From a virus (taxonomy: Duplodnaviria > Heunggongvirae > Uroviricota > Caudoviricetes): a stretch of 45,587 nt of DNA. The position numbers and the translations under genes were made by a program. A model generated the notes under the pieces. It worked only from the letters and a program-made list of their open reading frames with translations, was not told where the DNA came from and did not search any database. The stretch lies in the IMG/VR virus record IMGVR_UViG_2597489870_000004, one strand, 5' to 3'. Shown here piece after piece: positions 34,273 to 35,535 of the stretch. Position 1 is the stretch's first letter. Each line of letters starts with the position of its first letter.

Positions 34273-34545
34273 TTACCTCCAGATCCGTTGCTGGAAAGTG
34301 CGGGACGGACGTGGTGGGCGTTCGGAATAAGGCAGCCTGACAGAGATTATCCAGTGCCGATAGTCGAGACTGAGAGCTTTCTTAACCTCGAACCCGCGCC
34401 TGCGGTAAGAATGAATCAGCCATTCGGCCTGTTCTTCAGTACATGGTGGGTGTTGGTACCAGTCGGTTTTAAATGCGTGTGAACGCCGCTCATGCCGGAT
34501 GGCAAGGTCGGTATCAGAATTGTGAAATTTGGTTTTGTGCGCCAT
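34273..34545 (-). CDS. Hypothetical protein (position of rem in Qin-like prophages)
   Basis: 90-aa ORF between hok and the DUF968 gene. Confidence 0.45.
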   Translation of the reverse strand: MAHKTKFHNSDTDLAIRHERRSHAFKTDWYQHPPCTEEQAEWLIHSYRRRGFEVKKALSLDYRHWIISVRLPYSERPPRPSRTFQQRIWR

Positions 34546-34615
34546 CTGTTTTCTCTGCTGGCGCAGCAGGTGTCAGGTGTTCAGGCTGACGTGCGAATTG
34601 TAAACCAGAATGCCA

Positions 34616-34644
34616 GGAAAAAACAAAACCCGCCGAAGCGGGTT
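34616..34644 (-). terminator. Rho-independent terminator at 3' end of hok transcript
   Basis: Hairpin aacccgccgaagcgggtt followed on the minus strand by TTTTGTTTTTT. Confidence 0.65.
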
Positions 34645-34712
34645 AAGTGCGGGTGCGTTGAGGATGCCTGACACATCAGAGGTGGCGAGGGATTTCTCCC
34701 CCGCCAGGTCTC

Positions 34713-34868
34713 TTACTCCTCAGGTTCGTAAGCTGTGAAGACAGCGACCTCCGTCTGGCCGGTTCGGATTCGTACCTCGCAGAGGTCTTTCCTCGTTACC
34801 AGTGCCGTCACTATGACGGTTAAACAGATGACGATCAGGGCGATTAACATCGCCTTTTGCTGCTTCAT
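34713..34868 (-). CDS. hok: Hok/Gef family type I toxin (51 aa)
   Basis: Translation MKQQKAMLIALIVICLTVIVTALVTRKDLCEVRIRTGQTEVAVFTAYEPEE, matching the remembered HokD/RelF sequence; below ORF-track cutoff, found by manual translation. Confidence 0.85.
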   Translation of the reverse strand: MKQQKAMLIALIVICLTVIVTALVTRKDLCEVRIRTGQTEVAVFTAYEPEE

Positions 34869-35126
34869 AGCCTGCTTCTCCTTGACCTTTCGGTCCGTAA
34901 GAGGCTAATCTCTATGTGTCGCATAGATATGGCCTCAGATTAATGTTAAGCGTCTTGCAGGACGCGTAATGTTAACTGGGGCTTTTCTCTATCTGCCTTT
35001 TGGTGTTCATGCCTGAGACAGATAGCCTCAAGCACCCGCAGTCATTCTACTTAACTAAGATTTCCCCGCAAACCGTTTTTGTCCGGCACAGTAAATATCC
35101 AACTAAACCAATGGCGTTCGCTGTAT

Positions 35127-35306
35127 TTACCGCCAGTATTCAATGCACATGACCGCCATGAACACCCCTAAAAAAAGGGCATTTATATATCCAAATATTA
35201 ATATCAAAACATCAACTTTTTCCATATACCTTGCTGTGAAGATGATGGGCATACATGATACGAACAACCAAAACGCAACAAACAAAAACTGCAATGCGTT
35301 TTTCAT
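35127..35306 (-). CDS. Small two-TM membrane protein (59 aa), AT-rich codon usage
   Basis: Start at ATG 35306 preceded by GGAGGA; MKNALQFLFVAFWLFVSCMPIIFTARYMEKVDVLILIFGYINALFLGVFMAVMCIEYWR. Confidence 0.55.
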   Translation of the reverse strand: MKNALQFLFVAFWLFVSCMPIIFTARYMEKVDVLILIFGYINALFLGVFMAVMCIEYWR

Positions 35307-35535
35307 TATTCCTCCTACAATCAATGTGCAATTACATTTAAACACACCTCAATTTGGCCGGACATATAAATATCTAAACCAGAAAAAATCACTTACATAG
35401 CGTTACAAACTCTTTAGTCTAAATATTCATCGTAAAACATTCCCCATACTTATCAGCCCGTTCTGCGCTAGGTAGCTCATTGCCTTATCTGGGAATCTGT
35501 AATCAGGTTTCCGGATGCTGGTGGATTTTCGCGTT

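Follow-up and report, generated by a model that had tools for sequence, protein, structure and literature searches.

The type I toxin-antitoxin modules of the hok/sok family, together with their RNA elements and their mechanism, have been textbook knowledge since the 1990s. In plasmid R1, where the system is plasmid-borne and has a proven role in post-segregational killing, the mok frame overlaps hok out of frame over about 70 codons. A prophage-borne sister system, hokW-sokW (with mokW) of the Stx2 prophage Sp5 / VT2-Sakai / 933W, has been characterized experimentally: HokW, which is about 44% identical to R1 Hok, is toxic and is neutralised by sokW expressed from its own promoter, and mutation of that promoter abolishes antitoxin activity and releases toxicity (PMC8621323). 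The same study reported northern probing of sokW, a partial dependence on RNase III and Hfq, a contribution of hokW-sokW to lysis and phage release after mitomycin C, and a complementarity of 71 nt between sokW and the hokW leader (PMC8621323). Other chromosomal hok/sok loci were negative for post-segregational killing, as later papers citing Pedersen and Gerdes (1999) relate. The third point of reference is hokD (relF) of the Escherichia coli K-12 Qin prophage, which has been described as inactivated by rearrangement (PMC12214031). A 2026 preprint used the HokD peptide as a toxic control (bioRxiv 10.1101/2025.08.07.668861).

Here we describe a locus of this family in a 45,587-nt stretch of tailed-phage DNA (IMG/VR record IMGVR_UViG_2597489870_000004), the whole of which is referred to below as the window. 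The locus is, with high confidence, a type I module of the hok/sok family whose structure is complete. It belongs to the hokD/hokW clade, a type that lambda-like prophages carry in most E. coli genomes, and is itself borne by a Qin-like lambdoid prophage; its mechanism probably follows that of R1 and hokW-sokW.

The toxin gene and its prophage surroundings

The toxin gene, leader ORF, leader elements and terminator, for which the initial annotation gave no strand, all lie on the minus strand, with the predicted Sok and its promoter on the plus strand. The features of the coding and 3' part are as follows.

34868..34713, minus strand: hok (hokD) coding sequence, 51 aa plus stop, MKQQKAMLIALIVICLTVIVTALVTRKDLCEVRIRTGQTEVAVFTAYEPEE, uninterrupted
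34878..34883, minus strand: hok Shine-Dalgarno sequence AAGGAG, 9 nt 5' of the hok AUG
34728..34730, minus strand: Tyr47 codon UAC, followed by G
34617..34644, minus strand: intrinsic terminator of the hok mRNA, stem 34644..34627 (AACCCGC-TTCG-GCGGGTT) followed by a T-run

The encoded product is a small hydrophobic peptide of the Hok/Gef family with the expected length of about 50 aa, matching the Pfam profile HOK_GEF (PF01848) over its full length (positions 1-42 of 42, E=1.2e-23) and PHROG 251, 'MokW-like host killing', at 2.8e-33. Its ORF is nucleotide-identical to K-12 hokD from end to end, the peptide is thus that of K-12 HokD, and hokD is the label given by PGAP to the identical sequence. 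The hok Shine-Dalgarno sequence is invariant in an alignment of 47 sequences and is also kept in K-12. The window also agrees with K-12 at the Tyr47 codon, a reported site of TadA A-to-I editing at which about 6% of K-12 hokD mRNA is reported to be edited, changing Tyr to Cys (PMC12214031). Such a change would provide the second cysteine of the disulfide described for HokB.

The initial annotation had proposed an intact hok/mok type I locus, with an uninterrupted 51-aa Hok ORF, a short upstream ORF whose stop overlaps the hok ATG, a 3' intrinsic terminator, an AT-rich island of small ORFs upstream and no adjacent relBE, and in each of these respects its description was borne out. The upstream flank (35050-35500) has a GC content of 36-37%, against 53-55% downstream, and carries small prophage ORFs (DUF7167, phrog_519 and phrog_1997); no relBE was detected anywhere in the window by blastn and tblastx. 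The locus lies in the early (nin-like) region of the prophage and has a ydfU homologue, rusA and the Q antiterminator downstream of it, whereas hokW of VT2-Sakai is found near the end of the linear record (57.4 kb of 60.9 kb). The window can be recognised as a Qin-like lambdoid prophage by its DicF sRNA (41002-41053, plus strand, 76.7 bits) and by two tRNAs that lie downstream of the Q antiterminator (30371-30444 and 30545-30617, minus strand) and are annotated as Ile and Arg in EC958. The 90-aa ORF adjacent on the downstream side was considered as a candidate for Rem, the K-12 neighbour, and was rejected for lack of any alignment.

Two further small ORFs were observed in this neighbourhood. 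An unannotated, strongly hydrophobic ORF of 59 aa (MKNALQFLFVAFWLF...; 35127-35306, minus strand) is preceded by an AGGAGG Shine-Dalgarno sequence 6 nt upstream and sits within the stretch of 36-37% GC that immediately precedes the hok promoter. Three phage records contain it in identical or almost identical form under the name 'hornerin' or as hypothetical, and it is uncalled in EC958. On the plus strand, a PGAP 'hypothetical protein' of 59 aa (34492-34671; WP_001112736.1 in EC958) runs antisense to the hok 3' untranslated region and terminator, and since it overlaps the fbi and terminator RNA elements it is probably a spurious call.

Leader elements and predicted folding of the hok mRNA

Upstream of the toxin gene, the elements known from other members of the family were located on the minus strand in the expected order.

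35044..35071, minus strand: putative hok promoter, -35 TTGCGG (35071..35066), 16-nt spacer, -10 TAGAAT (35049..35044)
34618..35037, minus strand: predicted full-length hok mRNA (about 420 nt), beginning with the modelled 5' end GGGUGCUUGAGG and extending through the T-run of the terminator
35026..35037, minus strand: tac (translational activator), GGGUGCUUGAGG
34976..34982, minus strand: ucb (upstream complementary box), GCCCCAG
34932..34938, minus strand: mok Shine-Dalgarno region CUGAGGC, with GAGG 8 nt before the mok AUG
34924..34865, minus strand: mok-like leader ORF, 19 codons, MRHIEISLLRTERSRRSRL, with its TGA (34867..34865) overlapping the hok ATG (34868..34866)
34901..34905, minus strand: dcb (downstream complementary box), GCCUC
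34651..34663, minus strand: fbi (fold-back inhibition), CCUCAACGCACCC

The conserved, structured 5' leader was recognised by the Rfam model RF01794 at 35037..34866 (minus strand) over all of its length (model positions 1-157 of 157) with 106.7 bits and E=2.3e-23, the gathering score being 59 bits. Under the same model the R1-type IncFII plasmid locus scored 87.2 bits, hokW of VT2-Sakai 113.5 and phage Rac 442/2 111.1. RF01794 bears the name of the 'sok' antitoxin, yet what it describes is the leader on the hok-sense strand, as far as the hok AUG, so that an antisense RNA whose strand was read off this match would be mislabelled.

The putative hok -10 element ends 6 nt before the modelled +1, and both this element and a AACGGTTTGCGGG stretch are common to hokW of VT2-Sakai. 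A scan of 34400-35500 for sigma-70 consensus promoters returned no site, the hok and Sok promoters both falling below threshold; homology and visual inspection were therefore used to position the two.

Folding of the transcript of about 420 nt (35037..34619) gave a minimum free energy (MFE) of -175.1 kcal/mol (z=-8.5 against shuffled sequences). In this predicted structure the 5' and 3' ends are closed by long-range pairing of tac with fbi, which is complementary to it with one bulge (CCUCAA.CGCACCC), and ucb pairs with the mok Shine-Dalgarno region. The 12 predicted tac-fbi pairs are invariant in all 47 distinct clade sequences, which amounts to conservation rather than covariation, and fbi itself is kept in 105 of the 117 sampled loci, the remainder having failed the regular expression or run off the end of a contig. 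RNAalifold, applied to the 47 distinct sequences, returned a consensus with the same tac-fbi closure and the same pairing of ucb with the mok Shine-Dalgarno region.

An alternative set of pairings is predicted when the 3' end is left out. In the leader folded alone the tac-ucb stem forms without constraint, as it does in the Rfam consensus structure, and the mok Shine-Dalgarno region, covered by ucb in the closed form, is paired with dcb in the hairpin of the open form. This last pairing, between GCCUC of dcb and GAGGC of the mok Shine-Dalgarno region, was recovered in all 22 distinct variants of the hairpin and in the Rfam consensus. Forcing tac to pair with ucb cost 12.4 kcal/mol in the full-length RNA versus 4.6 kcal/mol after removal of fbi; the unconstrained MFE structure of the 3'-truncated mRNA is a different fold, lying 4.6 kcal/mol below the tac-ucb conformer. 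The calculated energies run in the direction that the R1 model requires and lend the switch support that is only qualitative. The upstream translational-activation and fold-back elements on which the initial annotation had made the intactness of the locus depend were thus present, as judged by Rfam, the predicted folds and the alignment: tac, ucb, the mok Shine-Dalgarno region, dcb and fbi, within a full-length RF01794 match.

Plasmid R1 and R1-type IncF loci have their elements arranged in the same order and the Sok promoter in the same place, and belong to the same Rfam leader family and the same peptide family; at the nucleotide level these loci can be aligned to the window in blocks only. 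The block from the promoter to fbi is 91.6% identical in DNA sequence to hokW-sokW of VT2-Sakai (Sp5) and other Stx2 phages, which shares the layout of tac, ucb, mok Shine-Dalgarno region, dcb, fbi and Sok promoter and is likewise prophage-borne, and the HokW peptide differs from the Hok of the window at 4 of 51 residues, all of them C-terminal. Loci in phages Evi, mEp460, Rac 442/2 and vB_EcoS-640R1 share 95-97% identity with this block, and loci of P1-like plasmids about 90%.

The predicted Sok RNA, its target hairpin and the mok frame

Whether a Sok antisense RNA and its promoter accompany the toxin gene had been left undecided in the initial annotation. Sequence and homology point to both: the plus strand carries a conserved promoter and an RNA of Sok shape within the region of close identity to hokW-sokW.

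34882..34911, plus strand: predicted Sok promoter, -35 TTGACC (34882-34887), 18-nt spacer, -10 TAATCT (34906-34911)
34917..34990, plus strand: predicted Sok RNA of about 70 nt, its ends deduced, with a free 5' tail UGUCGCAUAGAUAU, an interrupted hairpin of 25 bp and a U-rich UUUUCUCU tail

The promoter hexamers are conserved across the 117 sampled loci, the commonest form being TTGCCT-17-TAACCT of the hokW clade at the same position, compared with TTGACC-18-TAATCT in the window. The predicted Sok fold has an energy of -30.2 kcal/mol (z=-4.5), with the hairpin alone reaching z=-7.2, and the predicted size agrees with the 71-nt complementarity of sokW. A cis-encoded Sok is accordingly recognisable by its promoter, free 5' tail, terminator hairpin and complementarity to the mok initiation region. 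In a divergent subclade the hairpin has been kept by compensatory changes (alignment pairs 62/100, 64/97 and 65/96). In a subclade of IMG/VR loci (L025, L052, L100 and L115), which have a leader of 147 nt, the Sok terminator hairpin is swapped for a shorter, different one whose arms are themselves kept by compensatory changes, with tac, ucb, dcb and hok unchanged.

The target of the Sok 5' tail is the SDmok-dcb hairpin (34908-34932, minus strand; alignment columns 107-130), which carries the mok AUG. Variability within the 398-column alignment is highest in this hairpin, reaching 0.86 bits per column at columns 111-120 compared with 0.0-0.1 bits in the hok ORF, and a hairpin fold is nevertheless predicted for all 22 sequence variants of the segment. 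Both the Sok 5' tail and the target loop differ between the window and hokW. In the allele of the window the loop (34917-34921, minus strand) reads CGACA; it is 2 nt shorter than that of its relatives and, having no U, cannot hold a YUNR U-turn. Relatives carry CUGA or CUAG at this loop, and some of them lack an obvious YUNR U-turn. In R1 a YUNR U-turn, which may lie in the equivalent loop, is reported to be decisive for the fast binding of Sok (PMC6562991). The variability of the Sok target may reflect a diversification of Sok/hok specificity among the several copies that one genome can hold.

The mok-like ORF was read directly from the sequence, as it falls below the 20-aa limit of the ORF listing. 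Preceded by a Shine-Dalgarno sequence of its own, it runs through the hok Shine-Dalgarno sequence to the hok AUG, where its stop and the hok start overlap as cTATGA (AUGA in RNA). The initial annotation was right that it stops on the hok AUG and likened it to mok; it lacks the extension into hok that characterizes mok of plasmid R1. Its start codon occupies the position of that of the mok/mokW annotated in phage Rac 442/2 and in VT2-Sakai, and its frame differs among relatives. In a sample of 117 hokD-clade loci with a leader, drawn from IMG/VR plus reference loci, three spacings between the mok and hok starts were found.

57 nt, about 90 of 117 loci: mok in frame with hok, giving a 70-aa 'MokW' that ends at the hok stop
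56 nt, about 14 of 117 loci, the window among them: mok of 19 codons that terminates on the hok AUG
58 nt, 5 of 117 loci: mok of 68 aa in a frame different from that of hok, the form annotated in Rac 442/2

Three mok frames therefore coexist among near-identical hokD-type loci; hokW has the 57-nt, in-frame arrangement where the window has 56 nt, and an R1-type IncFII locus (L006) also has mok in frame with hok. The differences in spacing go back to two indels, one in the loop of the SDmok-dcb hairpin and one in a small GAAA-tetraloop hairpin before the hok Shine-Dalgarno sequence, the stem of which has been preserved by compensatory changes.

It has long been held that the translation of mok matters and not its product, and the free variation of the mok frame fits this view. 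One may go further and suppose that the mok frame drifts freely, only ribosome transit and not the Mok peptide being of consequence, and that at the same time Sok/hok recognition is under diversifying selection that insulates from one another the several hokD-type copies carried by most E. coli genomes. The allele of the window, with its AUGA overlap and its 5-nt loop without U, would then represent one distinct type of specificity and coupling. We put this double proposal forward tentatively, as a possibility somewhat short of an even chance. A recent survey of Hok diversity explicitly left Mok and Sok unanalysed, and the pattern of mok frames and Sok targets may thus be untabulated so far.

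Given these elements, the module could operate as follows. A weak promoter would yield the hok mRNA of about 420 nt, which at full length would be inert because its tac is held by the 3' fbi and its mok Shine-Dalgarno sequence is masked by ucb. Gradual trimming from the 3' end would take off fbi, whereupon the 5' end would refold onto ucb and the mok Shine-Dalgarno sequence and AUG would be displayed in the SDmok-dcb hairpin. As long as the short-lived antisense Sok is present it would bind this hairpin through its free 5' tail, leading to cleavage by RNase III. Once Sok has decayed, ribosomes would translate the 19-codon ORF through the hok Shine-Dalgarno sequence and stop at the UGA overlapping the hok AUG, which would allow translation of hok, and the 51-aa Hok membrane peptide would depolarise the inner membrane. 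The ORFs, the RNA elements, their predicted pairings and their conservation among relatives come from the sequences analysed here. For transcription, 3' processing, Sok instability, translational coupling and killing this scheme draws on the homologues, and the activity of the allele and the coupling through its leader ORF are predictions from its sequence.

Relation to K-12 hokD and alternative readings

Aligned to hokD of K-12 Qin, the window matches at 98.9% over 265 nt, a segment comprising the hok Shine-Dalgarno sequence, the ORF, the 3' untranslated region with fbi, and the terminator. The homology sets in with AGGAGAAGCAGGCT, 15 nt ahead of the hok ATG, and reaches as far as the terminator. 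Beyond its upstream limit K-12 has relB-relE where the window has the promoter, tac, ucb, the mok start, dcb and Sok, so that K-12 hokD lacks the last five of these elements while an orphan fbi is kept. The wider neighbourhood is the same in both, with a ydfU homologue (80% amino acid identity between window and K-12) and dicF and dicB further on; the relB-relE-hokD operon arrangement itself is absent from the window.

To place the two arrangements, 5426 complete E. coli genomes were searched. The complete leader (206-nt query of leader plus hok start, coverage of at least 80%) was present in 4297 of them (79%), and the K-12 relE-hokD junction, at coverage of at least 80%, in 1166. The complete locus is hence the norm and the K-12 arrangement a derived minority, which agrees with the published statement that K-12 hokD was inactivated by rearrangement (PMC12214031). 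The initial annotation had singled out the missing relBE as noteworthy; the absence is real, and is the common state in E. coli, K-12 being the exception. Leader copies numbered a median of 2 places per genome, with up to 9-10.

These frequencies also bear on the possibility that the locus looks complete and is physiologically silent, a neutral passenger of the prophage in which the 19-codon ORF is a frameshifted remnant of the 70-aa in-frame or the 68-aa overlapping mok and in which, with a loop lacking the U-turn, hok is uncoupled or mis-regulated. The 56-nt spacing is indeed uncommon (about 14 of 117 loci, 57 nt being found in about 90), the shortened loop sets the allele apart from its relatives, and the reported failure of other chromosomal hok/sok loci in tests of post-segregational killing points the same way. 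Yet the leader ORF still passes the hok Shine-Dalgarno sequence and stops exactly on the hok AUG, which is a standard geometry for coupling, and all other elements are intact. About 1038 genome records carry the leader at an identity to this allele of at least 99%, and a 601-nt segment recurs at 100% identity in many complete genomes, among them those of unrelated lineages (ST131 EC958 and JJ1886, ETEC H10407), which argues against recent decay. As the mok frame varies freely across the clade, no single frame can be called the functional one. We consider a silent locus unlikely.

Less probable still is that hok is expressed mainly by read-through from the upstream early operon of the prophage, as K-12 hokD is from the relBE promoter, with the antisense RNA having no real part. 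The upstream small ORFs are all on the same strand as hok, and no promoter passed the consensus scan; but the block of homology with hokW and Rac 442/2 begins at the -10 element and not upstream of it, the Rfam model starts at the conserved GGGUGC 5' end, and a read-through transcript would bury this end, which must be free for the tac-fbi pairing that all 47 of 47 sequences keep unchanged. Pfam and Rfam E-values of about 1e-23 led us to reject chance or an annotation artefact.

We therefore return to the reading of a structurally complete hok/sok module. The system as such is already known, its sequence and the hokD annotation being present in many complete genomes and a 92%-identical sister locus having been characterized. 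The observations on the mok frame and the Sok target touch a gap that the recent Hok survey left on purpose, and the drift of the mok frame together with the hypervariable Sok target could be the starting point for a small study of cross-talk among hok/sok copies that share a genome. For E. coli more generally, the locus brings to mind that hokD of K-12 is an exception created by rearrangement, the complete and prophage-borne form being the usual one.
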